Below are positions 1,058 through 62,250 of a DNA stretch of 64,000 nucleotides, piece after piece; position 1 is the stretch's first letter, and each line of letters starts with the position of its first letter. The translations under genes were made by a program, and so were the position numbers. Under the pieces are notes generated by a model that had not been told where the DNA came from, ran no database searches, and saw only the letters and a program-made list of their open reading frames with translations. The stretch is from Nageia nagi (Eukaryota > Plantae > Pinophyta): contig JBITNC010000001.1 in NCBI GenBank assembly GCA_050084985.1, forward strand, positions 18,476,001-18,540,000, given 5' to 3'.

Positions 1058-3193
1058 TTGCATTTATCTATCACTTTGCAAAAAATACTTAGCATGCATA
1101 AAAAATCAATAAACATGCATTATTATTTTTGCGTAAGTTACCAAATAGATATGCAATATTTTATCTAACATGCTAAAAAACTTAAGTAAAGAAATATAAA
1201 TTTCCTTTTTTACTTAAATAATAGCATTAAAAAAAAGCATTATGATAAATATCATGCTAAGTTAATTTTTAGAAATGCCAAGTTTATACCAAAAAAATTC
1301 CCACTTAATACTTAAGAGATAAATAAATTAGCCTCCTCTTAGGAAATTTACGCACTAAAAAAAGATAGTCATTCCATATTTGTATAAGGATCCATGATTT
1401 TAAGTAAATAATCATAAAAAATTTCCTTCTTTTTATTCAAAATCATGATCTTTTAAAAAAATAGCATTAGTAAAAAAAATGCTTTATCTAAAGAAGTTTA
1501 AGTAGTTAAAGTAGGATCTCTCAATAATTTGTCTCCCTTTTTTTCTTTAAGGCTAGAAATTACTTTCAAAGTACTAAGGAAAAGATAACCTTAGTATACT
1601 AAAGTGGTTTTTTTTTTAAATTCTTCTTCTAACCCTTTAAACATTTAGTAGAGATCTTTTAGAAAGTACTAACACTATCAAATCAAGTGTTTATTTTAAG
1701 CCTTAAAAAAATGCCAAAAAATTAAAGGACAAGCAATTAAAAAATCTTTTTAAAGATTTGCTACATTTTTCTTAAAAAAAAGCATTTAAGAGGAATGATG
1801 ACAAAAAAAATAATCATAACCAAGCATTAAATTTGAACTTAGAGTTTACTTCGACTCTAAAAACTTTTACTCCCTTAACACTCCAATGAATAGAAGATTC
1901 ATTAATGAATGACAAATTCATGACAAGATGGTAAAAAGAATGATAAAAAAAAATAGAAAGGTCACCCACCACAAGGACACAAATTAATGGAAAGAAACAA
2001 ACGTATGAATAACCACAAAGAAGGAGAATGCCCTCATTGCTTATCTTTTAGAGAAAAAAAATCTCGCAAGTCAAAAATGCAAAAAGGAGAGAAGAGGAGA
2101 GGGCGGGCAAATGAAATTGCCTGGTGAGGGTTTGCAACCGCGTGAAGGAGGTGGCGAAGCAGTGTGAGGGGTGCTCCATGGTGTGAAGGATGCTCCACGA
2201 CATGAAGGAGGAGGTGAAGTAGCATGAGAGGGTTACGACGGAAAACGAGAACATAGCATGTGAAGGGGCTATGGTCGGACGAGAGGAGAACACAACACAA
2301 AAAACCAGAGGGGGCCAACAACACAAAAGAAAAAAAGAACGTGTTGGTTGGGGTTTTGGAGGTCGATCATAGAGGGAAAAAAAGAGTCGGGAGGCTAGCA
2401 AGACTTGCAGGAATTGTGGGGCTGGTATCAGGAGCTTGTTTGAAGGGTTGCATTGCTGAGTGGCTACCACCAGTGCCACAACAAGAGAGGAAAAGAGGGC
2501 CGATGATGGAGGAGAATGTCGGTGGAGCTAACGTATTCTCAAAGGAGAATGGGGTTGGGAGGAGTGGTCGATCGACCAGTTGATTATTTTTAAAAAAATT
2601 CTATTTTGAAATAAAATACTCCACTCTTTTTGAAACATTAACAAATATCTTATCTATTATCTATTATATATATATATTTTTAAGAAATATTTGGTCTTAA
2701 CAAGAAAACTTATATAAAAAAGGTGGTTTTCCTTTTTTTTTTTTTAATATAAACTCCCATTTTTTAATGAAATGCAAACCATATTTTTGGAAAACAAAAT
2801 GGTAATTTTTGTTAAAAAAGATGTAATTACCTCCTTTATATTTTACACTAAAAAATTTGTGTAAAAAAAAATTGAAGTATTTTTAAAAGAAATTTCAAAT
2901 TTAACTATAACATATTATTGCCTATATAGACAATTTATCAAAAAATTGTAATTACCAAAAATAGTTTTAGTAAAAAAAAAACAATAACATGTAAGTATAT
3001 TTTTTTAAATAAAATGGATTAACTCATAACAATAAAAAAAATTGTTAGAATCATAATGAGATAATCCAAAAAAAAAGGAAGAAATTTATACTTATCTTAA
3101 GTTTACCTTAACAAGATCTAAATATTGAAGGAAGAAGACCTCTAAGTTGAATGAAGAAGATCTTCAAAATTTTGAAGAGGAACCTTCAAACTA

Positions 3194-3205
3194 GCTCTGA
3201 TACCA
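3194..3205 (-). promoter_or_regulatory. Primer binding site (tRNA-iMet)
   Basis: gctctgatacca on + = TGGTATCAGAGC, 2 nt from the LTR end. Confidence 0.9.
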
Positions 3206-3707
3206 AATGAGAGAATTGAATTATAATAAGAACAACTCTAAACTTCCAAGATCACATGAAAGCTTACAATACACATCGAACAAACTCACAAAGCAATCTT
3301 TCAAAGATAACACAAGATGTAAGTGATTCCTCCAACTAGGAGTACATCTACTAATTAGATCTCATTTCATTCATAAACATGAATCTCTTACAATTTTTCT
3401 AATTTATCTTCTAAACACTATCCTATAGCATGGTGTTACTTCACAAATTGGTATGTGATCACAAAGAGGGAGCCTTCTATTCATAGGTCAAAATCTCTCT
3501 TTGGATCACTCTTTTATCCAATGTACAAAAGCATGACATGCATATCCTTTTACCTAAGGGGCACACACATGATATGGAGTGTAGGACAAGTTATATTATC
3601 ATATTCACTTATATATTTAAGGTATCAAATGATACCTTTAAGTATTAATGAACTTACATAGAAGATTATTACATAACTTTAACAATAATGCATTATACAT
3701 TCCAAGA

Positions 3708-6378
3708 GAGATTCCAATGTTTGCCAAGCTAATGTAGTATCTCCATGATAGCTGCAACTAGTGTAGCAACATCAACTTCATCGAAAGCATCCTCATACAT
3801 CAAAGAGTCTTCATCATAAGATGATATAACTTCAAAATGTGCACAAAGGATGGAAAAATCTGTGTGAGGAGATGGCAGTGCATCCCAGTCTACAGGTGGC
3901 AATATGTCGCCATAAATAGTGTCAATGGTGTATCTGATAATAGCACAGACATAACATGATCTAGGGTACAAAAAACCCGACCCAGATGTGTTAGGGCAAG
4001 GATCAGGAATTTCACCAAGAAGATATGACAAAAGTTCAACTAAGCGCAAATACCCCACAAGACTGTTTTGCCGTGCTGGATATTAATCAAAGCTAGTGCA
4101 AGGAGTGATGGGAAGTGTTGAAAGATTCCACTTAAGATCCAACATAGGTGACCTGCAAAGACACCAATGTAGATGCTGAACTATGAAAAAGTTACCAAAA
4201 GAAATCTCCTTGAAACAAAGTGTCTCACCAAAGAGAGTGAGAAGACATGATGGAAAAGAAGCATCATAATCACAATTATAGTCCACCTCAAAGGAACTTC
4301 ATATGCACAAGGGTGTACAAGGGTGTGATGTTCACCTATGCAAACACAATGGGTTGATAACAAAGTTAAAAAAATTGGACAAATAATCAAAGAGTGAGTA
4401 GTACTTTATAAATGTAGTCAGTAGGATCAAAAAATAATCTCCCCTGAGAAGAAGTCCCCCACAAAAAAATGCCTTTATAGAATAGGTTTACAATCATGTT
4501 TTCTCTGCTCCGCAATGCAAAAAAACAACATTCAAAATGGAGTTCGTATGCAAAAGTTATGCAACTAATTCGATTGAATTGAAGGATAAAAATTTAATTT
4601 TTGAACCCCTAAATTAAAATCAATTAATTCAATTAATATTTAAATTGCAGAACTTCAAACTGAGATTTCAGGCAGAGGGAGAAGCCCAAATGTGCTGCTA
4701 CTTATTTCGTTCAGGACGAAAAGAAGAACCCAGATCTGCTGACGGGATGATGATTGAATCTTAGTAGCTCCGGTTATAGCCAAAAAAACATCAGTGTGAA
4801 AAAATGTTAGAATGAAAAAAAGTGACAGAGTGGCAGACCACAGACCAGTCAGCAATGAAAGGGCACGCCACAACAGTAAATCACACCAAGGCACCCAGTC
4901 AGCAAAGGGGATGTGCAGTCAGCGTACACAGTCAGCACGTGGGCTCCATGCCATGTCAGTCTTGAAAATCATTAAGAGGGGGACTTGAAGAGTGCGTCAG
5001 GTTGAAAGGAGCCCGTGAGGGCTGAAAGGCCCACGGAAGGAGCTTCTGAGGGCTCGCTTGATCCACACCACACACCAAACCCGCGCAGCAGTCACACAAA
5101 GCAACAGTCGTCCGCCAAAAATAGGGTGATCGCCCTGAGGAGTTTGAAGCAGAGGGGTGTCCAAGAACTTTCAGCAGATCTCCTCCTGAGGAAAATGTTA
5201 CACGGAAGAGAAAGAACAAATTCGTTGCCACCAGGAACGTCTCAAACGCTCACGACCCACCAAGATGTCACGCACGCTGGCTGCAGATCTTCAAACACGC
5301 AACCCATACATGCTGTCCACGGAATTATTTATCAAAGATCCTCGCCAGAAATGTCAGTTTCTTGGACTGCAATGATCAACGGTGTCGTAGAGAGGATGTA
5401 GAAACACGCCAAGGAGACCAAACATCTCCTTGATGGAGCATACAATGAAACCTCCAAGCGCAGATTAAGTGTAGCTTGAAAAGTGCAGGAAGTGCACAGG
5501 CCAGAGAGACGGGTGCGCTGTTGCAGATTAATTCTCCTTTCCGTTGCAGCTGCAGAGGTGAGGCGTACAGCCAGGAAGATCACAAAACACCAAGCGTGGA
5601 GGCGGAACAACGCCTGTGGGAGGCAGCGATGCTACCGTCTAATTTGAAAGGGCAGAAAACGCAACACAAAGGCCACGATTTCCAACCATAAAGAACATTG
5701 GAGTGTTGGTGGAGATGGGAACTTGCGTAAGGGCCCATCAAGAGCCAATAGCTGGTGAATGTGTGATCGTGGGTGCCCTTCAGATATGTTCGCAAAATGT
5801 GGATGTAGAAAAGTCACGTTATTTGAAAGCAAATACAGATCCGATAGCAGCTCGTCCGTCAGAAGTCACGGATGATCATCAAGCTAGACTACGAATAGAG
5901 ATCTGCAGGAGAGTGCGGTGGAGAGACTGCAGACACAAGGCGGCCACTATATGGTACTAAACACCCACGAAATGCAAGCAGGAGTCCGCAAAGAGAACTG
6001 TGGCTGGGAAAATAGAGATTTGAAGCCTAGGCGAGAACAAAGGATGTCCAGCACTGTAAAAAATCAGTCACCGTATTTCCAACCTGCATCCACTAGATCA
6101 ACACGCCTACGTGTCCAAGCAGAACACATATAGATGCCACAATGCAGACACTGTTTCTGGACGACAATGATCACAGGATAATCACAGATGTTGCAGATCT
6201 AAACAACCTCCTCCAAAATGCCCAGTAGATGTGGATGATCCCCACAAAATACATGCAATGATTCGTAACAAGAATTTGTTAGAATCCTAAACAAGCTAGG
6301 AAAATGATAGAAATATAATCCTTAATATCTTAGTAAAACTTAAGTAAATATTATACCTAAGTATTATATACTCTAACA
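3708..6378. mobile_element. Remnant of another probable LTR retroelement ending in a short (102-bp) LTR-like unit at 6277-6378
   Basis: 6277-6378 has inverted termini TGTTAGA...TCTAACA. The internal region is GC/CpG-rich with repeated CAGTCAGC motifs (~4845-4960). No PBS, TSD or recognisable protein domain was seen. Confidence 0.45.
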
Positions 6379-11129: not shown

Positions 11130-13029
11130 ATGGACTCATCTACATGAAGGTGTTAGCACTCTTAGGAACAAACATTTGTTGGACAGTGCATAAACATTAC
11201 TAGGGTGTGCTTCATATGCTTTGGATGCACCACATGCATTACGAGGTTGTCCAGAACTACCTTAAGTCTCCTGGTTCAGTTTCTGGGGTGCCATCTCTTC
11301 CCTAACATAAGATAAGTTAACTTTTGGTTTTTGTTTTATTGAGACTAACAAGTAAAGCTTACAATTTGGCTCTGATACCAACTATAAGGACCCAATCTCA
11401 ACACTTAAGGTAAATTCCTACTTAAACACCCAATTCATAACATTTGAGGGATGAGCACATTTTTTTTTTAAAAGTTTAAACTAATTAATTAAAAAACAAT
11501 TAAATGCTGAATGTGTTAGAAGTTACTTGTGAATCTTATGATATATTTATCACAATCTTGCTAGCATTGGTTCCAAGCCAAGTCATACATGAGTCTAGAA
11601 GTCTTCTTAACTATATACAATTTCTTGTTTATTAACGTAACTCATTAATAACAACCACGTCTTGCCTTTGTATATTCCTCTAAATATTGTTTCGCATAAC
11701 CCGCTAGCAACCTTTTCTTGAACATAGTGATTTCTTGATGGTATCATATACTTTACTCATATTTCTATCCATCGTCATATCATGACAATTTAATACTTCA
11801 AGGTCCATACGAATCCAAATGAGGATCTCAATTATCTTAACATAACTCACCTTTATAATCCTTATCCTCAAGATGAATAATCATGCCTTTATTTTATAGT
11901 GTTGGCTAAATTTACAACTTAAATTTAAACATCATAATCAAGAACCCAATATGATTTATAAGTAAATCATTCCCAACAAGAGATAGTAGTCTATCTCTTT
12001 TTTATCATATTCATTTTATTATCTTTTCTCAACCTCAAATATTTGCTCAAACTTTGATGCGTATAGGCAAGGGAGTTAGGTCCTAAGCATCATATTGCAA
12101 TTGCATAAAATAAAGTAATAACAACTTGATTTAAATACTAACATTGCATTTATAATTAAAAATTATACAACATCCATAAAGTAAAAGTACTCAAATAATA
12201 AATACCACTTTATTAAATAGAGAAAGTACTTTAAGGCATAAAACAATTATCCATAATTACTTAAATCATCTTCATTTCAATCTTCTAATGGTTGAGCAAT
12301 AACACCTATTACAAGTTTTAAGAAATCAATATAAATTCTTCACAAAAGCAAGAAGAAGATATCAATCAACTTAAATTGAACACGAAATCCCTTGAATGGA
12401 TTTGGATCATAACAACCTTTCTTTTTCCCTATCATGCAACTACATGTTTTTTGAAGGAAAAAGAACACAAAAGCAACACTTCTTTTTCTAGATTTTAAGC
12501 ATTGTTCCTAAAACTCATCTTTTCAAACTAATCTCAAGTAAAACAATAATTCTCTTAAAATAAATTTATCTATATTACTTTATAAGACTAATTTCAATTT
12601 TCTTGATCTAATAAACTCCTATTTTAAAAATATACAAGATCATTCAAAACATACCAAAATCCTTTTCCTAGTGTTTCCTATTTAATTCATCCATAAAAAC
12701 AACACTATGAATTTAAGATAATTTTCAATTATTTTAATTCTTTCTCAAAATAAAAATATCTCTTTTATTTTTCTCTAAAAATTAAAACACTTTAATAATA
12801 TATCTTATAATATATTATCATCAATAAAATTCTCATAAATATATATATATTTTGCTCTTATAATAAAATCTTTATTACTTTAAATAAAAAATATCCATTT
12901 CAATTCAATAGAATGACAACAATTTTATTAATTTCGAAATCAAAATAAAAACAAACTCTTTCATTTATTTATTTAGAAACATAAAACACTAATGAATTTT
13001 ATTAATCTAAAATATAATAGACATCAACA
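11130..13029 (-). mobile_element. Truncated LTR retrotransposon (probably Ty3/gypsy chromovirus-like): 5' LTR ~11383-13029, PBS-iMet 11369-11380, start of gag
   Basis: gctctgatacca at 11369-11380 is followed by the decayed LTR terminus T(A/G)TAAGGACCC. The minus strand reads MAPQKLNQE ~75 nt after the PBS. The right LTR boundary is uncertain (13029 or 13697). Confidence 0.6.
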
Positions 13030-22519: not shown

Positions 22520-24860
22520 AGTGTGTTTTGATAAGTAATGATGCCATTAATATTGTATGCATGATACCAAGGCCAATAATATTTTTTAATGCAATATTAG
22601 TCTCCCTAATGAGGCATTGCATACCTAACACTTGGATCTTGTAAATTAGAATACCTAGGTAATATTATGACTCACATGCTTTGATATGGCACACTTATCA
22701 TTAAATGGATCCTAGATCTAGATGTTGTACAAAGAGAGCATATTGACCCACACATTGGGTATTTGGGTATCTCGAGGCCCCACATCTCAACCTTGGAGGC
22801 TTAATAGTAAGTGGTGATACTAAGGAACATGGAAGTATCCCCTTATCCAAAATTGGTATTCTTGGCCCTTGGATGTGATTAATCTCATCCTAAGTCTTTC
22901 TATCTTAAATATTGGTATCATGAGCACACAAATCATTCTTGTAAATCGTTGGATCAACTCAACTTGAGATTAGAAGATCAACCACCTAGCCTATAAAAGG
23001 AATATCACTAGAACACATGAGATATGCTAAATTAATTAAACCTCCTTCTATCAGATTGAGTGTGAGAACTCTATCTTTTCAACTTCTAAGCTTCATTCTT
23101 TATTTGAGGTCTTGAGGTGATTAAAGGCTAGCCTCTTTCTTACTCCATCCATTAAAGAGAAGAATTTGGTTGTTCCATTGGTAGAGAGGTAAGGAATCCT
23201 TGGGCTTATCCTTATCATTGTTGTGATTAGTGATGCCTTGAATCCATCTATAATAACCCTATTAGATATAATCCCGATGTAAGTTCCTTAGGTATCAAAA
23301 ATAGCATCATTACAATATTATTATCAAGGTATTATAATTAAGGCTCTCTCATCTTTTAATTCAATCACATTATTTTGATATCATTATCCTATTATATCAT
23401 ATTTTCTTGAATGTTAGATCTAGGAGTATGTTTTGGCATTATTAATTTGTATTTGGCTTCCTAATCACCTACATTAGGTAATTGATCATAATATAGTCTT
23501 AACACTAATAGCTAGATGTTGGATGTATTATATCATTTTGTGCTTAATTGGTGAGATATAGAGGTTAAATATAAATGTCCCTCTCCTAAGGCACATTTGA
23601 GCATGAGCCATTAGGCTCATCATAATGGTATCAAAGCCTTGATTATTCCATCTTGTTAGAATCAAGGGTTTCACATAGAATATTTTGAGATTGTCTAAAG
23701 AGCTAAGATCTTTCCCTTTTGTTGGGTAAGAATTGTAAGGAGGAATTCTAAAGAATATCTCTTCATCTTGCTAGAGAGAAGAGGTTAATTTAAAGGAGTT
23801 CTCTTCATCTTGTTGGCAAGTAGCTATTGAAATAGATCTTATCATCTTGCTAGAAGATCTAAGGAGAATCAAAGATAACATAGTAGTTATTTTTTGGAAT
23901 CATAGTGGTATTGAGGAGAGTGAGAGTTGAGGAGATTTGAGGCATTTTAATTCTTGGATCTAGCTCATTCAAACACTATAAAGCTAATATTGATTTTTTT
24001 ACATGAGAATTGCTAGATCTAAACATTGAGAGTTGATGTTGAGGTTCAAGGCATTGGATCTTATTTGGAGAATAATTTGTTGCATCATTGAATCCTTAAT
24101 ATTACAATTATGAGCATCAAATTTCAAACATGGATTTCCTAGAAAGCAACATTAGATTCAAGGGCATAAAATTTGTGAATTGAAGGACCTTGGAGGAAGA
24201 TGTTAGGAATCTAAACACTAGATCTCAATATTGGAGTAGTTCGTTGGACCTAATTTAGCTACATTTTCAAGTTTGAAGGCTTCAAGGAGGTTCATCTAAC
24301 TTGGTGAGAGGTATTTTTTGAAAATTTTCATCAAGTTTAAGGTTCATTTATGCATTGAAGACCTAGATCTGGCATTCATTTGGCCATTCTAAGGCCATTA
24401 TGGAAGTTTAAGGAAAATCTATGAATCATTTGGAGTTTTTGAAACCATTCAAGAAGGTTGTTGGGCATTTTTGAGACCATTCAGAGGTTCATTTGTATTC
24501 TAAAAGGATATATTCGGTATTTATAAAAATCATTATACATTCTTGAAGGGTTCATTTGACCACTAGGAGAGTCAAATTTCAAAATTTGACATATGTTTGC
24601 CTCGGTGAGAGCAAAATGGAGGTAGCTTGAAAGGATATGTTGAGCTTTTGGGAGGCTTAACTTGTTATGAATTTATGAAATTCAATCATTAGAGATTGGA
24701 ATTTTGAGATCTTGGCATGCTTTGCTAATATTTAGTGATATTTTGCATCAATTCTAGAGTTTTGGGTCATTTTTGTAAGAATGTTAAGCTTGAAGGAGGC
24801 ACAATGTGAATTAGAGTTAATTTTCAAGCCCTTGGACCACATTATCCATCATGGAATGAA
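22520..24860 (+). mobile_element. LTR (to 23622) plus PBS-iMet and non-coding internal fragment of another LTR retrotransposon
   Basis: CTATAAAAGG TATA-like motif at ~22991; ..CATCA LTR end at 23622, then TGGTATCAAAGC at 23626-23637. Outer boundaries are approximate. Confidence 0.6.
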
Positions 24861-36900: not shown

Positions 36901-39900
36901 GAGAAATGCACTCTTTATGTCAAGTTAAAAAAATTTCATCTTTGAGTTGTTGAAAGAGAAAGGATAATTTTGATAGTAGGCATCTTTGCCATGGGAGCAA
37001 AGGTTTCCTCATAATCAACACCATATTTTTGAGTAAAACCTTTGGCCACTAGCCTTGTCTTGTATTTCTCAATATCTTCAATTAAATTAAACTTGACCTT
37101 GTAGATCCATTTATTGCTAATCACATTCTTCTCATTGAGATAAGAAACCAAATCCCAAGTTTTATTTTTTATAAACATCTCATACTCCACTTTCATGGCT
37201 TTCATCCAGAACCCATGCTTTGAAGCTTCTTTGAACGATGAGGTCTCATTCTTGTTATCAATTTTGGAAGTAAGGATTTGTTCAAGGTTATACTCCTTGT
37301 TATCCTTTGCATTGAAGAATTTCATTCCTAAGGTGACTTATCTACAGCAATATCTAACCAGCTTGGTGCAACTGATGAGTCATCTAGATCATCAACATCC
37401 TCATTAGAACTAACTTCTTTAAGAATTTAATTGGACTTTACATCCCTTGATATGAACATAGCTCTATAAGATAAAGTGTAGATCTTATAGCGTCTATGTT
37501 GATGATCATAACTAACAAAGATGCATTTGTCAACTTATTTATCTAACTTTTTTCTTTTCTTAGAAATAATATAGGAGAATGCTTCACAACCAAACACCTT
37601 AAGATGAGAAATATTAGGTCTTATTCTTTTCCAAGCCTTAAAAAGAGTTTTCTCTTGAATGATTTTTGTGGGACACTTATTCAAGATGTAAATTACAATG
37701 CTCATAGCTTCACCCTATAAAAACTACGAAGATTACCCAACATACATATAGCCATATCCATAATTATCATGTTTTTCCTTTTGATAATATCATTTTGCTG
37801 AGGAGTGTAAGGAATCATAAATTGCCTTTTGATTTCATACTTGGCGCAATAGACATTGAACTCATTGTTGTTATATTCTCCCCTATTATGTAATCTCAAG
37901 GTCTTGATTTTAAGGTTAGTCTAATTTTCAACTAAGGCCTTGAAATTTTTAAAACTCTCAAAGGTTTGATCCTTATGCTCATGTAGATAGCCAAAATTCA
38001 TCCTACTAAAGTCATCAATGAAGGTTAATACATAAGATGCTCCCCCAAGTGACTTAGTCTGAAATATACCTATCAAATTTGAATGAACAAATTAAAGAGG
38101 ATGAGATGCCCTTGTTGCCTTATCTTTTTCAAACCTTTGTCTATTCATCTTTCCTAGGATGCACTTCTCACACAAACTGATTGAAGGTGAAATTGAACTA
38201 AACCTTCCATAAGTTGTTGGTCTTTCATGACTTGAATACTCTTATGGTTAAAGTTCCCTAAATATTGGTGCCAAAGATTACCTCTAGAACACACATTTGT
38301 AGTAAGACACATCTTTGTTAAAAATTGATCCATAATGTAAAGATCCTCTTTCACTGATCCTTTAACCAACATGGCAAGTCCCTTCTTAATACACCAAGAG
38401 TGTGATTCGAACTCAAATGAGTATACTTTTTATGCAACTTGAATCAAGAAGATAAGGTTCATCTTGAACTTAGGAACATAAAGCACATTTTTCAAGAACC
38501 TTCCTATGAATCAACACACTTCCAATTCTTTGAACTTTAAGAATTAAATTATCACCAATCACAACTGCAACTTTTCTATACTTATAAAAATTTTCAACCT
38601 TATCATTTTCAAAGCATAGGTGATTAGTGCATTTAAAGTCAACAATCCATTCATACAAGAAGAAGCAAGTCGTGGAATAGAGCCTAGCAACAAGTCCAAC
38701 TTTTATATTCTATGGTCAACAATCTAATTGCACCCACAAGCAATAAGTTGGATCCTAAAGTCAATAATTTTATTCAAGTAGATGGTAACATTTTCATCTT
38801 CCCTAGACAAGATTGAAGTAAATTTTACATAATAGTGAACCTTTTTGAAAATTTAGATCCAAGGTAAATTTTCTTGAGCTTATCTCATGCTTCATTTGCT
38901 AAGGTTGATGATGAAATCATAAGGAGCACTTCATCTAACATTGCATGAAAAATCATGAAGGTTGCTAATTCATTCTTTGTGTTGTATGCCTCAAGTGCTT
39001 TTTCATTTGTAGGAGCAACAAGGTTCTTATTAATTATCTGTCAAATTTTCTTTGCTTGCAATTTAACTCTCATCTGAGGTTCCCAAATACCAAAGTTGGA
39101 ACCATCGAGAATGTGCTTAGGTAAGAAGGTGTCTCACATTTGCTACATAAGAATGTGAAAAGTAAGCATGTGGTCTAAAATAACATTACATGTTTAGATT
39201 TAATCATCTATACATGTTTTAGATTTATTCAAGTAAATCAATCATACATGTTAAATTTAATAAAAGGACATGCTTAATTTGTTTAAACAAAGTTCACATG
39301 TGCAAATGTTTACAATATAAACACATAATACATCCCATGTATTTGACACTTTTATCATCACCAAGTACCATAAATGTAGAGGGATAATGTTGAGGATTAT
39401 TTTCTTATTTAAAATTAGACCTTCACCTAGATATCGTAAGGTGGAACCCAGGTACTATCAATCTTCTTCTAGTTTACCTTGGGCAGTAACATACTCTCAC
39501 AAGGAGGAGTACCTACTATTTTTCAAAGTTGTGATGTATGTTAGATCAACCAAATTATTAATCTTGATTAGGTTTTAAGTTATCCTCGTAGGTTTTCAAG
39601 ATAATTCTTAAATGAACATGTGAACATGTGGTATCACTACACACATATCTATCCACCTATTGGAGTTATATCCAAACTAATAAAGAATTTAGGAGCAATT
39701 AATAAGTACAAAATTTTTACCATTTGGATCATCATACTAAAGGCTCCAATCTGCCTTATCCTCACCTTGTGACTCCCCAAACAAGTCATGTTGCGAAATG
39801 TACCTATGGATGTATTCATTTTAGGGGTTTGCACATTCAATTTTTGCAATTTTGCATAAATAAAGCAAAGATATAAACATAAAGTAAAGTGCATTTAAAA

Positions 39901-42431
39901 ATGAAACATTATCTATAGAAAACTTGAGACCTAATATTCTAATGGGTTTTGTTTACTAACTCCTAAAGAATATCTTTATATAATCTATTATTTTGCACAA
40001 GTCCATTTATTAACTTTGCATAAGGAATAAACATGTATCATTTCCATAGTTTTCACAAGTCCATTCATAACTTTGCATAAGGAATTTATCCAAAAAAACG
40101 AATGCTTATAAAAGTATCAAAAATCCTAGGCATGCATCCATTCCTCATAACAAATTCTAATATTTTTAAGTAAAACATAAAAATTCCTCCCTTTTTTACT
40201 TAAAAAAAAACTTTAGGCAACATGATCCCTTCAATAAATACTTAGGTATAAAATTACTAGTTTACCTTAGAAAGTAATTCATATCACTTTAAAAATGTCA
40301 TTATAAGACATTAATGTTAAGAATTACCATTTTTCCTAAGCAATTGAAGGTACTTTAAAATTGCAAAAATTTCCTTTAGGAAAAAAATAATCCCATTTAA
40401 TATTTAAAAGGTTGCCATAAAAAAAAATCATCCTCTTCTTTGCAAAAAAAAAAAAACTTAAACCTTTCAACACTAAAAAGGAACTTTTAAGAAATGCAAT
40501 TTGACCAAGTAAACTACTTCTATGCATTTACAAAAAAAATACCCCCCGTAACAAAGCATCCATATTTCTATGCAATTTTCAAATTAAATGTTTATCCCCT
40601 TTTTAAAGATAAGGAATGATAGCAAAGTATTAAATGTTGACACGATTACCTATTTACTTGCAAGAAATTAATCCTTAGTTTTAACCTTTACTTCACTCCA
40701 AGTCAGATGCATTAAATGGAACATTGGTAAAAAATTAAGACTTTAAGTTTACTTGCAAGAAACCCAAAAAAAAGTGTGAAAAGGAAAAAAAATGCCTGAG
40801 TTTCTCCCTATTTTGTTTGGTTTCTACGTAGAGATAGAGAGGAGGGGCCGAGAGAGGCGCCTATGGAGGGAGGGCCTTACAAGGTGCTAATGGGAAATAA
40901 ACCACGGCTAGAGCTCATCCGCCCTGGTTGGCTCAGCTTTCTGCCTCTCCCATTTTGCCTCATCATTCCCTAGCCAGTCTGCGTAGATAGAAGGGGCAAA
41001 GAGATAAGGGAGGTGAGATCCGCAATGCCCAGGGGGCAAATCAGAAGAAGCATCTAGTGGCGCACCCAATCTTGCCATCATAAGGTTATGGATTGAGGAG
41101 GAGAGGAACAGCTGTGCTGGGGATATAGTGTGTAGGAAAAGAATTAGTTTCAAGGATGCACATGATAGACACAGTTTCTTAGGACCTACGAGAAGAGATA
41201 GTGGAGTTTGCAAGCGACGGAGAGTGGCGAGGGGTCTTCAAGAAGTAGATAGTACTCTCAAAGAATATGGAGTGATTCAAAGAAAAAGGAGTGGAATGTA
41301 CTCTGAACACCAGCGAGAGGTTGTGTTTGGCACAGCAAAGGAGACCAGGTAACAGAGTAGAGACTCGCACAGCCGATGAGAGTACCCATTCATACTATAG
41401 AAGCCCCAACCAACTTTTTTAAATTGGCCTAATTTTAAAGATTATTTGTTTTGAACTTTTTTTAAGTTTCTATATTTTCTCTCAGCAATGAAATTTTTGA
41501 AAAAAAATACTAAATTTCAAAAGAAAATAGGATATTATATGTAAATATGAAAAATTTCTTGTTAGCAAGCTTTTGAAAAAATAATTTCCTTTGTTTCAAA
41601 CAGCTTATGAAAACCTCTTTTAGAATAAATAAATATGGTAAGCAAAATATTTTTAAAAAATTGCATTAATAAAGAAGGTTAGTGTTAGACAATTACATCA
41701 TATTTCTAATTTTTTTAAGCATATTTTGTTAAAAGAAATGAACACATAACAAATAATATGTTAGTAGCATAGTGAAATAATAAAAATAACCAAGAAGGAA
41801 GGAATATATACCTTCTCTTGATTTTATTGCAACAAGACTCCAAAATTGAAGGAAGAAAACCTCCAAGTTGAAGGAAGAAGATCTCCAAAATGTTGAAGAG
41901 GAACCTTCAAACTAGCTCTGATACCAAATGAAAGATTTATGCCTTAAAGAACACAATCCTAAACTACCAAGATCTATTGAAAGCTCACTCAAACAACAAT
42001 ATACTAAAACATAAATCAATCTCACAAAGTGATTAAAGATATAAAGTGGTTCCTTCAACTGAGAGAACATCCACTAACAAGATCTTACTTCATTCACAAA
42101 GACAACTCTCTTACAATACTCCTAACTTCATCTCCTAATCACTATCTTAGAGCATAATTTTGTTTCACAAATTGGTGAGTGATCACAAAGAGGGGACCTT
42201 CTATTTATAGGCCAAAATACCCTTTTGGATCACCCTTTTAACCATTGTACAAAGGTATGATATGCTACTCCCATTTACCCAAGGGGCATGTTCATGAGAT
42301 GGAGTGTAAGAATAGTTACATTATCATATTCACTTAAATACTTAAGGTATCTACTGATACCATTAAGTATTAGTGAATTTACAAAGATGAACATTACAAA
42401 ACCTTACAATAGTGCATTATACATTCCAACA
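33996..42431 (-). mobile_element. Ty1/copia LTR retrotransposon with both LTRs (33996-34497, 41929-42431) and degenerate gag-PR-INT-RT-RH; same family as 1-3707
   Basis: TG..CA LTRs of ~500 bp; PBS-iMet 41915-41926; PPT CTCCCTCTTAA from 34498. gag LDGSNFGIW (~39100), PR WIVDFKCTNH (~38640), INT PYTPQQND (~37800), RT [45 protein letters not shown]. RNase H ends ~35240. Confidence 0.95.
35526..36005 (+). mobile_element. Solo LTR (480 bp) inserted in the copia RNase H region, opposite orientation
   Basis: TGTTAGAAT...CCTTCA termini, perfect 5-bp TSD AATAT (35521-35525, 36006-36010), TATAAATA at ~35751. Confidence 0.9.
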
Positions 42432-42620
42432 GTAAGTTCACTCTAACATCAATTTACTTAAAGCTTAACAATCTCACAAATTGACTCACCCTTTTAACCA
42501 TATTACCAAGGCATGACATGTTTCACCCTTTTATCCAAGGGGCATGCTCATGAGATGGAGTGTAGGATAAGTTATATTATCATATTCATTTAAATGCTTA
42601 AGGTATCTAGGGGTACCATT
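42432..42620 (-). mobile_element. Internally deleted partial LTR of the same copia family
   Basis: Aligns with ~34046-34102 and then ~34298-34430 of the left LTR. Confidence 0.85.
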
Positions 42621-50903: not shown

Positions 50904-51253
50904 TCAAACTGGTTTGTCATGTAAACAAGACATCAATGCTGATACTACATGCAATGACCCAGTAACACATATAATGCCATGAGAGTCATTACTAGTAAGT
51001 TCCAACAATTTCCCAGCCTTCTTTACGGCAGCTTCTACAGACTCAGGTTCTGTAGCGACCAGTAACTCTGAACTCCCATGACTAAAATCTTTCGGCGCAT
51101 AGTTGATTTGCTTTTCATTCCAATCTGTAACAGACAAACTATGCTCTCCTGCAATTTGCATCCAAATTCTTGACAATGAAGAAGCAGGTGTTGTGCGGAT
51201 GTTGCTACCAGCCACACCAACCTCGGTGAAAACAGCTGCCATTGGCAGTGCAC
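50904..51253 (-). CDS. DHFS: Dihydrofolate synthetase (FolC family), last coding exon
   Basis: TTTGTAG| acceptor, phase 1. Encodes ALPMAAVFTEVGVAGSNIRT...IICVTGSLHVVSALMSCLHDKPV* with the FolC C-terminal xTGSL motif. Confidence 0.92.
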
Positions 51254-51850
51254 CTACAAAGCTCCACCACATAACCAGTGAGTAGTAATTAAAACGAATT
51301 TATCAGAACATTTTGGCCAGTCATAAAGATTAGGAACCACCAGAGTCTAAGAGTCAACTATTTGAATTCTGATTAGCTTCAATCCGTAATCAAAATAAGA
51401 CGATAAAAATGATTGTGAAGATGCAAAGGTTGTTGATTTTATTCACAATACCATTGCTATAAACTCATGGATTGTACAAATCTATGTTATGGAGTCTTCA
51501 TTTTATAACTATTTTGAAGAAAGTCACTTGAATTTTCCCCCAATTCAATCAATAGTAAAAATATGAACACTCCCAACTAAACCCATAAGAGCATACGTAG
51601 ATCAATTAAACTCCATGAATTTCGCATTTTATTCTGCTCCCTAATTAATACACTTTGGAACCCATTAGGCCATTACTATTTTCCAATCATGATTTTGGGT
51701 CATCGTACAAATATCAAATAATTACTTCTGTACAATTACTTCAGTAGCTGATTTCAATCAGCAGACCGTCAATCTATTTAGGCTTCATGTTTGGCTTGAA
51801 GGGGAATGGCGGAAGGTTAATCTACTCTCAAGATAAAATACTCAAAACAG

Positions 51851-52213
51851 GGGCTGGTAGCTCAGTGGTAGAGTACATATGCCAGTATCAGAAGATGCCA
51901 GTTTTGAATTGTTATGAACCGTTACACAAAAGGTCGACCTATTAGTGAATCCAACACCATGGATCTAACATATCACCACGCTCCGCATCCACGTCCCGCG
52001 GCTTCACTTGTGGCGGCTCTCATCTAGTCATTCTCTAGGTAGCCTTTCACAGTAGCCCTTCCGGGGACTTGAACTTGGGACGTATGGCCTGCTATGATAC
52101 CAAATTATGAACGTTAACACCAAAGGTCGACCATAGTGATCCACACACCCAGATCTTAACATGAATCCTAACGGGTCCATAGGTTCTAAGAATAGTTGTA
52201 AGTCCAAAAAAAA
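51851..52213 (+). mobile_element. tRNA-derived SINE-like element (or tRNA pseudogene) interrupted by a TRIM
   Basis: A-box TAGCTCAGTGG (51858-51868) and an intact D-arm. Removing the TRIM restores GTTTTGAATCC (B-box) and the acceptor 3' strand CGGGTCCA. A-run at ~52206-52213. The anticodon arm does not pair. Confidence 0.75.
51910..52161 (-). mobile_element. 252-bp terminal-repeat retrotransposon in miniature (TRIM)
   Basis: LTRs 51910-51970 and 52105-52161; outer termini TG..CA; TSD TGAAT (51905-51909, 52162-52166); PBS TGGTATCATAGC at 52102-52091. Confidence 0.88.
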
Positions 52214-52309
52214 TATTACAAATTGTAAACTTGAATTCAAACTAACAGATGAGCACCCATCACAATACAATACAATTCAAACACCTGCTAGAAAAAGGAA
52301 TTACACTAC

Positions 52310-52441
52310 CTGAAATGATTTGATCAGCAAAAGCTGAATGATCTTTGTCATTTGCCATAGCTATAACAAAGGCCAACGGTTGATCTGAATGTACCATCCT
52401 GATTGTGGCTGCTATAGCTTTGGCAGACGCTTCCGTGTGTG
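52310..52441 (-). CDS. DHFS: DHFS penultimate coding exon
   Basis: ATTAG| acceptor and CAG|GTAG donor. Encodes AHTEASAKAIAATIRMVHSDQPLAFVIAMANDKDHSAFADQIISG. Confidence 0.92.
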
Positions 52442-56759: not shown

Positions 56760-58040
56760 TTCGCCCCCTTTGCTACATACCTCCATTTTGCTTTTTGCCC
56801 TCTTGCTTCCATGACTCAAAAGCCAACATCTCACCCTCTCTGATTCAAGCTCATGTGGGAAAGCTACAATTGCCATCGAGATCTACAGTTAGCCCGTTAA
56901 TGGCGCGCTAACAATGGAACCACCTCTACGGTCTTGGTGAAGCCTTTTCATGAAAGAGGCTAATGAGAAGATGTCTCAAAATACCTCGCTCGATCATCAA
57001 TCAGGCAATTGAGCGAGGGCGCTACAATTTGGTAGGAAGACTTCATGGAGCACGTCCAAACTAAGTTACCGATTCAGGTACGTGTTCAGATTCAGGTTCG
57101 TTGTTTCAATTTGCAGATTTGGCAAAAAACAAATTTGGGTTTTGGGTACGGTTTGGGTACGTCCATACAAAAACCATGTAAAAATCAGAAATAAACATAA
57201 ATTTGCAGCCTAGAAACATGAAATTAAGATTAGAGTATCACATAGCATCATATAAACAACAAAACCACCATAAACATGAATGTCATTTAAAACATGCATG
57301 AGAAATTTCGCTCAAACTTCAAGTTCAATATTAAAATATTAATATCAAGTTCAAGTTTCAACGGTTCAAATGAAACTTCTAGGAGTCTAAGATTCTAAAT
57401 CAGTAATCTCATCATCATCATTGACATTAGATGATGTAGGAACATTAGAACCACAACCAATGCCACTGCCACATGCACTAACAACATGTTCATGTTCATC
57501 CAAGTCATCATGTTCAACTCCCTTTGATCACTCTTCAACTCTGAAGACAAGGGTTAGCCTTTTGGAAAAAACTTTGTTGTTTGCAAGGGAAATGAACAAG
57601 AATGAATGAGTTTAGAGGGTTTAAGGCCTTTAAGAGGTAACTTTTAGGGTTTCCCATATGTAATTGGTCAAATTCAAGGAGAAAAACAATAAAGAAATGA
57701 TAAAATTTATTAAAAAATCGGCCAGACGCCTTGGATACTTTGCGAGTACTTCCTGATATGCCCAAGTACTCCCACGTATGTTAGTGGCGTATCCGACTTC
57801 AAAAAAACATTTCCTAGACAAATCCGTTCGCGTATCGAACCCGTATCCATATCCAAAACGTACGGAACCCGTATCCACCCCTTCTGCAGGTGTATCCAGT
57901 AACTTAGCGTCCAAAACATTGATTTAATCCGAAGGTGGGAAAAACAGAAATGGACAATCAAGGGCAGCCTTGATGTTGTTGCAATACCTAGTGACTATAT
58001 CATGTTCGCTTTCAGCAATGAAGAAGACAAAGATTAATAC
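56760..58040 (+). mobile_element. L1-type LINE 5' fragment (ORF1 N-terminal DUF4283-like region) interrupted by a hAT element
   Basis: Reads LVGRLHGARP|NIDLIRRWEKQKWTIKGSLDVVAIPSDYIMFAFSNEED across the excised insert. Confidence 0.75.
57061..57907 (-). mobile_element. Non-autonomous hAT DNA transposon (847 bp)
   Basis: TIRs CTAAGTTAC..GTAACTTAG; perfect 8-bp TSD CGTCCAAA; reverse-complement relative of 60867-61959. Confidence 0.93.
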
Positions 58041-58305: not shown

Positions 58306-59700
58306 ATCCCCAAGGGGGGATGAATAAGGCAAAACAAAAACCGGACCTTAAACCCACATGGGAATGGGTTAACATCTTCACCTACAACCGAGCTAAACTA
58401 ATAGAGAAAATTGAAATCTCTTTGGAAGCTAAGATTGTTGAGAAGGAAGTGCGAATCATGATCCCCAAAACTATTGTCAATAATGAAGCCGAAAGATATA
58501 AGAAAATGTTTATCGGGCAATTTGTGGGCAATAGACCGGGGCTCGAAATAATCTAGATATGGATGACATAAAACAGGCTCACTAAAGGATCTGTCAAATT
58601 AGTGGTGCTTCCTAAGGAATTCCTATTTTTTAGTTTCTCCTACGAAGATGACCTGTCCAAAGTCCTGAAAGTGGGGCCATGGTTCTTGGGTAGAAAGGGA
58701 TTGATCCTGAAATGGTGGTACAAAGGTTTCAGACATGAAGTGGAAAATATCAATCCAATTCGTACCTGGGTAAGTCTTCCCAACCTTCCACATGAGTACT
58801 GGAACACCAATGTAATTGTTGGAATTGCAAAAGTAATTGAAGAGTTAATCTCCATAGAAAAGTGAACTAAGAATAGAAGTAGGCCGACATATGATAGATT
58901 CTGCGTAAACATTGACACCACAAAGGATTTGAGGAAGAAAATTTTCGTGGATGAGGAAGATGGAGGTACATGGGAACAAGAAATTGTCTACCAAAACCTC
59001 CCCTTCCAGTGCACAATCTGCAACCAGTATTATCATTATGCTAGAGAGTGTCCGGAAAGGAAAGTGGAGCCCCCTTCAGTAGGAAAGGTTAATGATAAAA
59101 AGAAGGATGAGGGAGGTTGGATGCAAGTTCAGAAGCAGGGAAAAAAAAGAAAGATCAATTCAACAATAAAAACAAGTATCAAACCTACAAGAAAGGTTAT
59201 ACAGGTCAAAAACAGACTGAGGTAAATAAAGAACAGCCAAGAAGAAACCCATTTACGCCATCAGATAACTTTGAGGGAACCGAATCAGCAGATGAATCAT
59301 AGGTAGAAGAGGACACATGGGAGGAGACGAAGATAACTAATATGGAGGAAGAGGAACCAATGGAAATGGACTTGGATGAGACATCCGCGAAGATGGTACA
59401 AAGAAGAAAAAGAAGCAGGAGTGGAATTATAGCAGATAAGAAAAAGGGAATACAGGGGGAAGGTGAATATATTCCAGTAAGACAACAGAACAATTTTAGG
59501 AAAAACCCCAAATGTAGGGCATCCGGTTATGAGGAAGCCCTCTAGCCAACAAATAAGAACCAAAAAGACAATGGAAGAAATAGCCAATGGGATGCAAGCC
59601 ACTCTAGAGCAGAGTGGACAGTCGTTGTCTTTATGAAGATTCTAAAAAGGAATTTACGAGGTCACAAGGACACTATCAAGCAGAGGTCTAGTCGAGATCT
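58045..59700 (+). mobile_element. Second L1-type LINE: ORF1 (DUF4283-like + CCHC) and the first codons of ORF2
   Basis: FIGQFVGNRP, GPWFLGRKGLILKWW, WVSLPNLPHEYW, YQNLPFQCTICNQYYHYARECP; ORF2 start MKILKRNLRG at ~59633. Confidence 0.88.
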
Positions 59701-62250
59701 CTTGGAAATGCAATTAAAATGCAGCCAAAACTCTCAAGAAAGGAATCCATACAAAATAAGGAAGGTGTACAGACTTGAGGATGGGCCCCACTATGATTGA
59801 AGTGGCAATCTATTGAGTCACATGGCTCGGGTAAAGGATATTTACTATGTCAGATGGTGGGACCAACATCTTCAAATAAGGAGTATGAATGAAAGGAGTC
59901 GGCAACTAGTAGAAGTGATAGGTGATGATGTACGCAACTCAAACGAATCCCACAAGTTCCATAAGCCTCAAGTCAGAGATAGGGGACAGTGCGGCACACG
60001 AATACTCGTAACAGATGGTGGTCTAAGTTCCGAGGTGGTGGAAATCCAGAAATTATATCATCATTATCCAATGTTGTTTTGAGGCATGCAAAGGCAGATT
60101 TGAGAATTGCAAATATGGCCAGAAAAGGAGGAAAACCCCTTCTAAGGAAAAGGGTTCCTAAGAAGAGGCCCAAACCCACCTTAAAGAGGGAAGAAGAGGA
60201 GAGTAGAACCAAATCAAGCTGTTGAGGTAAGGAGTAAGAAAATTCTTCAAGATGAAAAAGGTAGTACAAGAGATCCTAGACATCCCAAAAAACCCTAGCA
60301 ACCCTTGGAATTCTAATGGCAATGCACAATAAGGCAAAAAAAAGGAAATGGAGGATTCTGAGAATCTTGGTGATTTTGGACTAGGAGAAAAGGAAGGGGA
60401 AAAGGAAGATAGTTCAAAGGAAACCCACGTAAGCTCTAGAAAATTTAAACCTAAGGAATTGGAGAGCCAGGAGCTCTCCAATTTCTTCTAAAAGCCCGAC
60501 AGTTGAAAAAAATAACGATAGAAAAAACGAATCCGATGAAACATGGGAAATAAGTAAAGGAGACCCCTCAATTGTCCCAGAGGGAATGACCATGAAGAAG
60601 AATGAGGAAACTAACTCAGACCATATGGAAGAGGATATATGGAGCAAAGAAGAATCCTCCAAGATCCCAGAACCCACCAAGTCTAAGTTGCTGAAGATCA
60701 ATGATCAGGAGAAACGCATCAAACCGGGAGATCCTTCGCCAAGAAAGCAATCAGAAGCAGAAGTTCAATTGGGTAAGAACTCTCCACTCATTCTTGAGTA
60801 TGTTTTGTTGATTGAAAAAGATTAGTTAGCAGAAGAAAAGGGAAAAGTTTCTGCCAAAGTACAAACCTAAGTTACCGGATACTCCTGTAGAAGTGGTGGA
60901 TACAGGTTCAATATGTTTCGCATACGAATACGGGTTTGATACGTTTCGGATTCAGATATGGATACGGTTCAATATGCAAATGGATTCGTCCAGGAAACAC
61001 TTTTTTGAAGTCAGATACGCCACTGATGTACCTAGGAGTACCCAAGCGTATCAAGAAGTACCCACGGAGTATCCAAGGAGTTTAGTGGATTTTTTAATGA
61101 AGTTTATTATTTTTTTATTGTTTTTTCTCCTTGACTTTGACCGATTGCACATGGGCGACCCTAAAAGTTACCTCTTAAAGGCCTTAAGCCCTCTAAACTC
61201 ATTCATTCTTGTTCATTTCTCTTGCAAACAGCAAAGTTTTTTCCAAGAGGCTGAGCATTGACTTCAAAGTTGAAGAGTGATCAAAGCGAGTTGAAGAGTG
61301 ATCAAAGGGATCTTCTACAAGGATTGTATTGTCATTTCTACTCATCCACTCAGTCAAACACAATAGAATGAACTCAAAAAAGCGGAAGACTTAGTATATG
61401 TGTATTCCAACTTGCGCCTCCTTTCACACAAAGAAAATGACTATAAGCAAGCGGAGATGAAGTTGTGGGATATACAGCCAATACAAGCTCACTTGGATGC
61501 ATCCAATTCCCAAAATATATTACCCATTTGATGACTTGGATGAACATGAAGATGTTGTTAGTGCAAGTGGCAATGGCACTGGTAGTGGTTATAATGTTCC
61601 TACATCATCTAATGTCAATGATGATGATGAGATTATTGATTTAGAATCTTAGACTCTTAGAAGTTTCATTTGAACAGTTGAAACTTGAACTCAATATTAC
61701 TATTTTAATATTGAACTTGAAGTTTGCGCAATATTTGTCATCCATGTTTTAAATGACATTCATGTTTATGGTGGTTTTGTTATTTATATGATGTTATGTG
61801 AAACTCTAATCTTAATTTCATGCTTCTAGACTGCAAATTTATGTTTATTTTTTATTTTTACATGCTTTTGTATTGACATACCCAAAACATTTTTTTGCCA
61901 AATCCACGAATCGAACCAACGAACCCGAATCTGAGCCTGTACCCGAATCGATAACTTAGGTACAAACAGAAGGAAGGTCAGAAGCACCTAAAAAGCAACC
62001 AAAAGAAGGTGAAACAGAGGAGGACACTCCCCTTGTAATACAGTCACTGAGTGTCATTAAACCAGTGATCACAAGATCAGCAAGCACAACACCACATACC
62101 CTAAGACAGAAGAGGAGAAAGAGATCTAATTCCAAGATGAGGCTGTAGAAGAGAAGGATCGAAGCACCTCAGGCAGAGAAGACCGCAACAATAAAGAAGA
62201 TGGGAGGGCCATGCCCTCAAAGAATAAGTAATTCAGTTTTTAGTAGTATT
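59700..62250 (+). mobile_element. Degenerate TE-derived ORF remnant (possibly the tail of a plant-mobile-domain-like accessory ORF of a gypsy element)
   Basis: Purine-rich coding-like sequence, YYVRWWDQH followed by a long K/E-rich region; interrupted by a hAT with intact TSD. Confidence 0.35.
60867..61959 (+). mobile_element. Non-autonomous hAT DNA transposon (1093 bp) retaining the transposase C-terminus
   Basis: TIRs CTAAGTTAC..ATAACTTAG; perfect 8-bp TSD GTACAAAC; IHSVKHNRMNSK..AEDLVYVYSNLRLLS (hAT dimerisation region) at ~61344-61430. Confidence 0.93.

Follow-up and report, generated by a model that had tools for sequence, protein, structure and literature searches.

The segment analyzed here is part of a decayed plant TRIM, and the two box motifs in it probably form a split type-2 RNA polymerase III (Pol III) promoter that would be complete only at the 5' LTR of the element. 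The motifs are best read as a type-2 Pol III unit, and we consider it rather likely that such a unit would start in the 5' LTR and end at a run of four T's (T4) in the 3' LTR, with an R region of about 15 nt. Based on sequence comparisons, the family of this element and several other families of mini-elements, including the SMART elements of grasses, are likely copied by Pol III and not by Pol II. The original prediction had proposed a tRNA-type promoter split between the LTR and the primer-binding site (PBS) and complete only at the 5' LTR. The core of this proposal is supported by the data from the family and across families (see below), while the conserved A-box is a different word from the one it chose.

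The TRIM, a non-autonomous LTR mini-retrotransposon, is a decayed copy of 252 bp on the minus strand (51910–52161), recognized by its LTR pair, TG..CA ends and target site duplication (TSD). The two LTRs, of 57 and 61 nt, enclose an interior of about 130 nt. The 5' LTR (52105–52161) lacks the terminal CA and its T-run is only T3, and the 3' LTR is located at 51910–51970. The PBS (52091–52102) corresponds to initiator tRNA-Met with one mismatch, and this Met motif is the PBS quoted in PMC7215508. A decayed polypurine tract (PPT) is assigned to 51971–51986 from its position before the 3' LTR. The TSD (ATTCA, 5 bp) has its upstream copy at 52162–52166 and its downstream copy at 51905–51909. All these features are on the minus strand. 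With a length under 1 kb, no coding capacity, a PBS, a decayed PPT and a 5-bp TSD, the 252-bp element has the hallmarks of a TRIM. A contig of run X8, from a relative, jumps from 51904 to 52162, so that exactly 257 nt, the TRIM plus one TSD, are absent, and a contig of X6 likewise has no TRIM. These empty sites establish the TRIM as a true insertion.

No further copy of the TRIM was found by comparing the window (the whole stretch of 64,000 nt that was analyzed) with itself. The copy at 51910–52161 is probably inactive. Nine of the 10 gaps listed between X4 contigs and the window are letters absent from the window, several of them in homopolymers. Part of the decay of this copy may therefore be assembly error, which makes the LTR divergence unfit for dating. 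Folding of the whole TRIM gives a z score of -2.5, and the matches of this region to Rfam snoRNAs are all far under threshold.

The host of the TRIM is an intron of folC (folylpolyglutamate/dihydrofolate synthase), which spans 1,056 nt on the minus strand (51254–52309) and has GT/AG ends. The exon at 52311–52439 is identical at 43 of 43 positions to protein P0001, which passes TIGR01499 folC. In RNA-like contigs, the 3' end of the intron is joined in two ways (52308–52310 / 51253–51262), one of them with extra letters before the exon, and a possible explanation is an alternative acceptor. Within the intron, the TRIM splits an older, tRNA-derived SINE-like element on the plus strand (51851–52213). 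This element has a weak Rfam tRNA match at 51851–51905 (14.7 bits, E 4), an A-box at 51858–51868 (by regular expression), a decayed B-box at 51901–51909 that is continued at 52167–52168, and an A-tail at 52206–52213. The insertion point of the TRIM lies inside this decayed B-box and the TSD is part of the box, a single case from which no claim of targeting is made.

The window contains four other Met-PBS sites, in larger LTR elements, at 3194–3205, 11369–11380, 23626–23637 and 41915–41926. None of the four has a B-box behind it or a T4/A-box layout before it. The segments 2992–3708 and 41716–42432 are copies of one family (78%). Other features in the window are a Copia RT fragment (PF07727) on the minus strand at 36936–37337, a weak piece of a zinc-knuckle ORF on the plus strand at 58866–59225, and a large inverted repeat pair (57061–57874 and 60928–61959, 83–87% identity).

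Evidence on other copies of the family comes from contigs selected at 80% likeness (23 from X6, 8 from X8, 2 from X4 and 0 from X18); all 24 runs consist of contigs, not raw RNA reads. In the two DNA-like runs, contigs of other copies cover only 52059–52105 and 51910–51953. The uncovered region 52110–52160 and interior may reflect the many gaps of this copy and are not counted as absence. The RNA-like contigs with pieces of the family (X1, X2 and X4) may be host transcripts, and are uninformative on start, end and strand.

The B-box AGTTCAAGTCC is located in the interior (52065–52075, minus strand), 15 nt past the PBS, with the letters and at the position originally reported. The window has a single GTTCRARTCC, against 0.41 expected from shuffles, and the word is not rare by itself. 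On the other hand, the chance that such a word starts 5–30 nt after a given PBS is only about 0.0002, so its placement here is unlikely to be accidental. Other copies of the family have A at 52068 (five X6 contigs, one X8 and one X4) and G at 52070 (two X6, two X8 and one X4), both read on the minus strand. The B-box of the family therefore reads GTTCRAATCC, which is canonical, and the copy in the window is further from the consensus than its relatives. The likeness to a tRNA T-arm that had been noted here does not extend to structure, as the segment 52055–52090 folds no T-stem (z = +1.27). ARAGORN finds 0 genes, so the region is neither a tRNA gene nor a cloverleaf, and searches for an initiator tRNA gene gave chance matches only. 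The consensus strings for A-box and B-box, like the A-to-B spacing of tRNA genes, are general knowledge.

The A-box presents a different situation. The word originally assigned, TGGTCGACCTTTGG, is indeed found in the 5' LTR at 52120–52133 (minus strand), but it does not qualify as an A-box. It has 5 nt between its A and GG and three mismatches to both the 11- and the 12-nt consensus, and it is not kept in the 3' LTR, where its counterpart starts with AGG and finishes with TGT. Loose A-box words are common, with 28 matches in the window. Most of TGGTCGACCTTTGG is the palindrome GGTCGACC together with the T-run, and its last GG opens a better candidate. This candidate starts at the last T of the T-run, 11 nt past the start of the earlier word (52111–52122, minus strand), and it is broken in this copy by three mismatches. 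Its counterpart in the 3' LTR (51919–51929, minus strand) differs from TRGYNNARYGG by one mismatch. An extra base is present at 51926 in contigs of other copies (two each from X6, X8, X4 and X1, and one from X2), which produces T4 followed by a full match to the 11-nt consensus. Contigs that run from the PBS into their own 5' LTR (nine X6 and three X8) have T4 and the A-box word in the majority, with CpG-type decay in the word. The joints and loose ends of contigs also show that, in other copies, CA ends the LTR before the spacer. The family as a whole thus has both promoter boxes expected of a TRIMp3, a canonical B-box in its copies and an A-box match after T4 in its LTRs; this same A-box is the one broken in the 5' LTR of the window copy.

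The remaining LTR motifs, all on the minus strand, are arranged around this A-box. The 8-nt palindrome GGTCGACC (52125–52132, with a copy at 51939–51932) is in the predicted R region. The T4 run of the 3' LTR (51928–51931), the predicted Pol III terminator, is the only T4 on the sense strand of the TRIM, and T4 is found at the equivalent place in families F1–F6 described below. The predicted start (YA) is at 52134–52135, with its counterpart at 51944–51943 in the 3' LTR, and is placed from the motif, not from mapping. The word TTAAGA (52154–52159), weakly TATA-like and assigned by position, is at the start of the LTR; TATAAG, TATAAA or TTAAGTA at about -26 to -28 in F1–F4 belong to the same position class.

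Several details of the original prediction change as a consequence. It saw no TATA in the LTR, which is partly wrong as the AT-rich TTAAGA opens the LTR, though the word is weak. Because its A-box differs from the conserved word, the start is now predicted at about 52134 and not at 8–12 nt before 52133. The A-to-B spacing moves to about 50 nt in the family; the earlier value of 58 nt, start to start, holds for the two words first named in this copy. The check that it proposed for internal terminators came out as it expected, with no T4+ on the sense strand between the LTR T-runs of the window copy. It overlooked the LTR T4 that would end the transcript, the palindrome, and the recurrence of the layout in other families.

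This recurrence was found in a metagenome scan for which the query consisted only of the PBS, 5–30 nt and the B-box word, and which gave at least 118 loci. Among the matches listed, 62 loci were grouped by eye into seven TRIM families (F1 32, F2 15, F3 6, F4 2, F5 5, F6 1 and F7 1), 45 were judged by eye to be prokaryotic or chance matches and excluded, and 11 were used as controls (3 TRIM-like with a gap of 27, 4 Copia-like with a gap of 17, and 4 singletons). The matches listed include duplicates (L090/L096 and L020/L027/L032), and two F1 loci with short flanks were excluded from the counts. The LTRs of F1 end in TA, and several element boundaries are unsure. Complete copies with 5-bp TSDs among these matches are 280–283 bp long in F1, 291 in F3, 329 in F4 and 348–362 in F5. 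The tag from the supplement of PMC3281118, searched in the listed loci, matches 18 of them, all in F1, identifying F1 as SMART, and the small RNAs of that paper match F1 as well. The flanks of F5 and F7 are GC-richer and look algal. The combination of PBS and B-box was found 0 times in viral contigs.

The distance from the PBS to the B-box word is 10 to 22 nt across the families among the matches listed, and several of them have GGTC, similar to a variable loop, before the box. Neither the U3 of the TRIM in the window nor its sequence past the B-box has a detectable likeness to the other families (z at most 2.2). F1, F3 and F4 are related to each other (U3 z of 5–5.6), so the data represent about six independent lineages and not eight. 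Three control loci (L073, L095 and L112) form a TRIM-like family with a B-box-like word 27 nt past the PBS and no upstream T4/A-box layout. L068, L094 and L008 are TRIMs with an extended or tandem structure, and a second PBS follows after 2229 nt in L068 and after 313 nt in L094. The promoter would be complete wherever a PBS and B-box come after an internal LTR, which may bear on TRIMs in tandem arrays. In L099, the interior has three short direct repeats starting with GGACTAACCG, with a G-rich tract on one side of them and the 3' LTR on the other.

Upstream of the PBS, where the query made no selection, six of the seven families have the order YA, 8-nt palindrome, T4 and A-box-like word (poor in one), and F7 is without this layout. 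TATA-like words are located about 26–28 nt before YA in five families, F1–F5. Among the matches listed, T4 followed by two purines is present 12–40 nt before the PBS in 25/30 loci of F1, 12/15 of F2, 2/6 of F3 (which has TATT variants), 2/2 of F4, 5/5 of F5, 1/1 of F6 and 0/1 of F7. The same feature is found in 1/4 Copia-like controls, 0/3 with gap 27 and 2/4 singletons, and before 16 of 238 chance PBS words in phage DNA, which are a chance background only and not real PBS controls. When LTRs are counted in F3, the T-run is a full T4 in 4/9 and TATT in the rest. A full A-box match follows T4 in the best F2 copies, the 3' LTR of F6 and the window family; the word has one deviation in F1, F3 and F4, and is poor in F5.

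F1 (U5 of 32 plus gap of 12) and F3 (U5 of 22 plus gap of 22) have the same distance, 57 nt, between the last T and the B-box. It is 54 nt in F2, 55–56 in F4, about 50 in the window family, 45 in F6 and 42 in F5. These distances span the range of tRNA genes.

The palindrome before the T-run is perfect in 35/46 LTRs of F1, 3/19 of F2, 1/9 of F3, 9/10 of F5 and 2/2 in the window, and is complete with G-U pairs in 4/4 of F4 and 2/2 of F6. There are four different perfect palindromes in all (those of F1/F3, F2, F5 and the window, of the GGTCGACC type). YAWY is found 5 nt before the palindrome in 43/46 LTRs of F1, 14/19 of F2, 7/9 of F3, 4/4 of F4, 9/10 of F5, 2/2 of F6 and 1/2 in the window (the 3' LTR). 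Twelve further LTRs have no T-run. Among 444 sites in the window with T4-5 and two purines, 9 have a perfect palindrome, 24 have YAWY and 0 have both. The palindrome and YA features were noticed post hoc on the same data, and an offset of 1 nt was allowed for F5. Within families, column conservation of the A- and B-boxes is not clearly above that of the remaining U5, with rows without T4 or with shifted spacing excluded (9/30 in F1 and 5/15 in F2). It is not used as support here, because of these dropped rows and because inserted copies decay neutrally.

A Pol III transcript would have to avoid T4 before its end. Over all families, 13 T4+ runs are seen between the two LTR T-runs, against about 42 by shuffling. 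Copies with an internal T4 are 2/24 in F1, 2/9 in F2, 2/5 in F3, 1/2 in F4, 3/3 in F5, 0/1 in F6 and 0/1 in the window, and copies with A4 are 19/24, 4/9, 5/5, 2/2, 3/3, 0/1 and 0/1, respectively; the copies behind these counts are not independent. The leaders behind other PBSs have T4 within the first 190 nt in 10/11 loci, and in 3/4 of the other PBS sites in the window. By lineage, an internal T-run is conserved in 1/5, against 8/9 for ordinary PBS leaders (Fisher P 0.02), a rough value as base composition is unmatched and family-level P values are partly post hoc. The sense strand is free of internal T4+ in the window copy, as for a TRIMp3, and T4 is scarce in F1–F4 and F6. F5 is a clear exception: a T4-5 is conserved there (3/3) immediately behind the B-box, and this run conflicts with simple Pol III read-through. 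The F5 loci (L011, L020, L027, L032 and L055) have a conserved inverted repeat of the type A5-GTT-GT5 directly after the B-box, about 71 nt past the LTR T4.

In the proposed mechanism, TFIIIC would bind the A-box in U5 and the B-box in the interior, across the LTR end and the PBS, and TFIIIB would occupy the TATA-like word with which the LTR opens. Transcription would begin at YA, about 15 nt before the A-box. The T4 of the 5' LTR, at about +13, would have to be read through, a step that the mechanism implies and leaves unexplained, and the same T4 in the 3' LTR would stop the transcript. As the terminator precedes the A-box inside the repeat, one LTR sequence could be the start at the 5' end and the stop at the 3' end. 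At the window locus, the predicted start is near 52134 and the predicted end is at 51931–51928. The RNA, of about 200 nt, would have the order R-U5-PBS-interior-PPT-U3-R, with an R of about 14–16 nt that includes the palindrome. By analogy with the PAL sequences of Ty1, the palindrome in R would serve strand transfer or dimer formation. The TATA and start would be regenerated in each cycle because U3 is copied from the 3' LTR, with the B-box present once. Gag-Pol would come from an autonomous partner, likely of the Ty1/copia type. The 3' LTR and solo LTRs, which have no B-box, would be silent or weak.

Small RNAs of 24 nt tend to have A at the 5' end, and YA is a start for Pol IV as well. As both give the same result as a Pol III start at YA, small-RNA ends are weak support for the predicted start. 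The A predicted beforehand as +1 of SMART is the first letter in 4 of the 41 rows (three from rice and one from maize, counted by eye) of Table 4 in PMC3281118.

An alternative, which we consider unlikely, is that the LTR is a minimal Pol II promoter and that the B-box-like word acts in the RNA, by pairing with the T-arm of the primer tRNA, or as a TFIIIC chromatin boundary. A TATA-like word at about -27 and a YA start fit Pol II too, and PMC3281118 takes the TATA in the SMART LTR as a typical promoter box, with no termination signal found. Box 0 of Ty1, a few nt past the PBS, pairs with the T or D hairpin of the tRNA (PMC5454406). T-loop words are near-palindromic, so that sense and antisense look alike. 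The internal T5 of F5 points in the same direction. Moreover, part of the SMART interior is found at 96% in the autonomous Copia element FRetro64, and a Pol II element may therefore carry the B-box word too. This alternative leaves unexplained, however, the fixed T4 before the A-box match, the scarcity of internal T4, the equal A-to-B distance in F1 and F3, and the SMART LTRs without a polyadenylation signal (PMC3281118). Pairing in the RNA is also difficult to reconcile with the variable distance, 10 to 22 nt, between PBS and word.

The motifs could instead be passive relics of a SINE/tRNA fragment or of a Copia leader, with TRIM RNA arising from host read-through, for example of introns, which seems quite improbable. 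The window copy and many SMARTs are intronic (for SMART, PMC3281118), the motifs are decayed in many copies, and the GGTC before the box in several families suggests descent from a tRNA or SINE. Yet the order and spacing of the motifs persist where the likeness of U3 and interior is gone, and the palindromes differ in sequence but stay palindromic, which argues for selection. Chance resemblance in a single decayed copy is the least probable explanation, to be given very little weight. The background frequency of the B word, the 28 loose A-box matches and the first A-box, which was indeed a chance match, would be in keeping with it. It is largely refuted already by the family copies, which are nearer to the consensus than the window copy, and by the seven other families with the word behind the PBS, six of them with the upstream layout among the matches listed.

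Beyond the split Pol III promoter at this locus, we lean, with less confidence, toward an overlooked and widespread class of Pol III mini-retrotransposons, in which a tRNA-type promoter extends across the LTR/PBS junction, the 5' LTR alone would fire and solo LTRs would be silent. Such a class would include the grass SMARTs, other land-plant families and probably ones from green algae. Its members would have TATA, start, palindrome, terminator and A-box inside an LTR of 60–80 bp and the B-box past the PBS, and many 'canonical' TRIMs would in effect be SINE-like LTR elements. If true, the split promoter would explain how LTRs of 60–80 bp can work, why no transcription of flanking DNA from the 3' LTR is needed, and why an LTR screen for tRNA similarity missed such families. 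It would also point to TFIIIC sites at many TRIM copies within introns, and its base-level predictions (start, end and length of R) can be checked in existing rice and maize RNA data.

No description of a promoter split across LTR and PBS was found in the literature covered, which lies outside subscription journals and the Repbase notes; families of this kind may be present in the supplements to the papers on Helenus and sugar beet. The words 'tRNA' and 'polymerase' are absent from the main text of PMC3281118, which left the synthesis and termination of SMART RNA unexplained, and 'tRNA' and 'promoter' are absent from that of PMC4717578. In a review of December 2025 (PMC12786077), Cassandra is still the one plant LTR element named as an exception that uses Pol III.

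Helenus, a tRNA-type TRIMp3 (Kojima 2024; PMC10886601), is like the window TRIM in being short and non-autonomous, with a PBS, a PPT, a 5-bp TSD and both A- and B-boxes, and its use of Pol III is itself inferred. In Helenus, however, both boxes are inside each LTR, whereas the B-box of the window TRIM is outside the LTR, past the PBS, and without a tRNA-like fold. The Helenus screen was run on Repbase LTR entries, and its only plant case is from Selaginella. The window TRIM is not a Helenus element, as the only B-box match in the window is at 52075–52065, behind the PBS, and there is no tRNA match in the LTRs.

Cassandra, a 5S-type TRIM, resembles the proposed unit in its start in the 5' LTR, terminator in the 3' LTR, very short R and Met PBS; its RNA starts and ends inside the LTRs with an 18-bp repeat (PMC10886601), near the R of about 14–16 nt predicted here. 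On the other hand, the type-1 (5S) promoter of Cassandra is complete in both LTRs and the elements are 565–860 bp long. Membership in Cassandra or Ajax does not apply, with no 5S match up to E 10 in 51800–52300. SMART, or FRetro129 (Gao 2012; PMC3281118), is similar to the window TRIM in size class, short LTRs, TGTT ends and insertion into introns, and SMART (F1) has the same split layout as the window family. The window TRIM is not itself a SMART, as neither its U3 (z -0.7) nor the sequence past its B-box (z 2.2) resembles F1.

The proposed unit has in common with tRNA genes and tRNA-derived SINEs a TATA-like word, a pyrimidine-A start, an A-box, the spacing to the B-box and a T4 end. Plant tRNA genes have TATA, a CAA start, A- and B-boxes and T4+ ends (PMC11700998), and the order TATA-like word, YA, A and B in the TRIM matches this. 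Unlike both, the TRIM moves by the LTR route (PBS, PPT, TG..CA and 5-bp TSD) and has the terminator before the A-box in the repeat, with the LTR end and PBS in place of the anticodon arm. Box 0, Box 1 and the PAL sequences of Ty1 (PMC5454406) are comparable as T-arm-related motifs past the PBS and palindromes near the RNA 5' end, the latter proposed for dimer formation. Ty1 is autonomous and its boxes show complementarity to the primer tRNA, whereas the TRIM word matches the sense B-box consensus. From these comparisons, the window element is a TRIM that is neither Helenus nor Cassandra, and its mode of action is likely that of a TRIMp3 in which the architecture is split and new.
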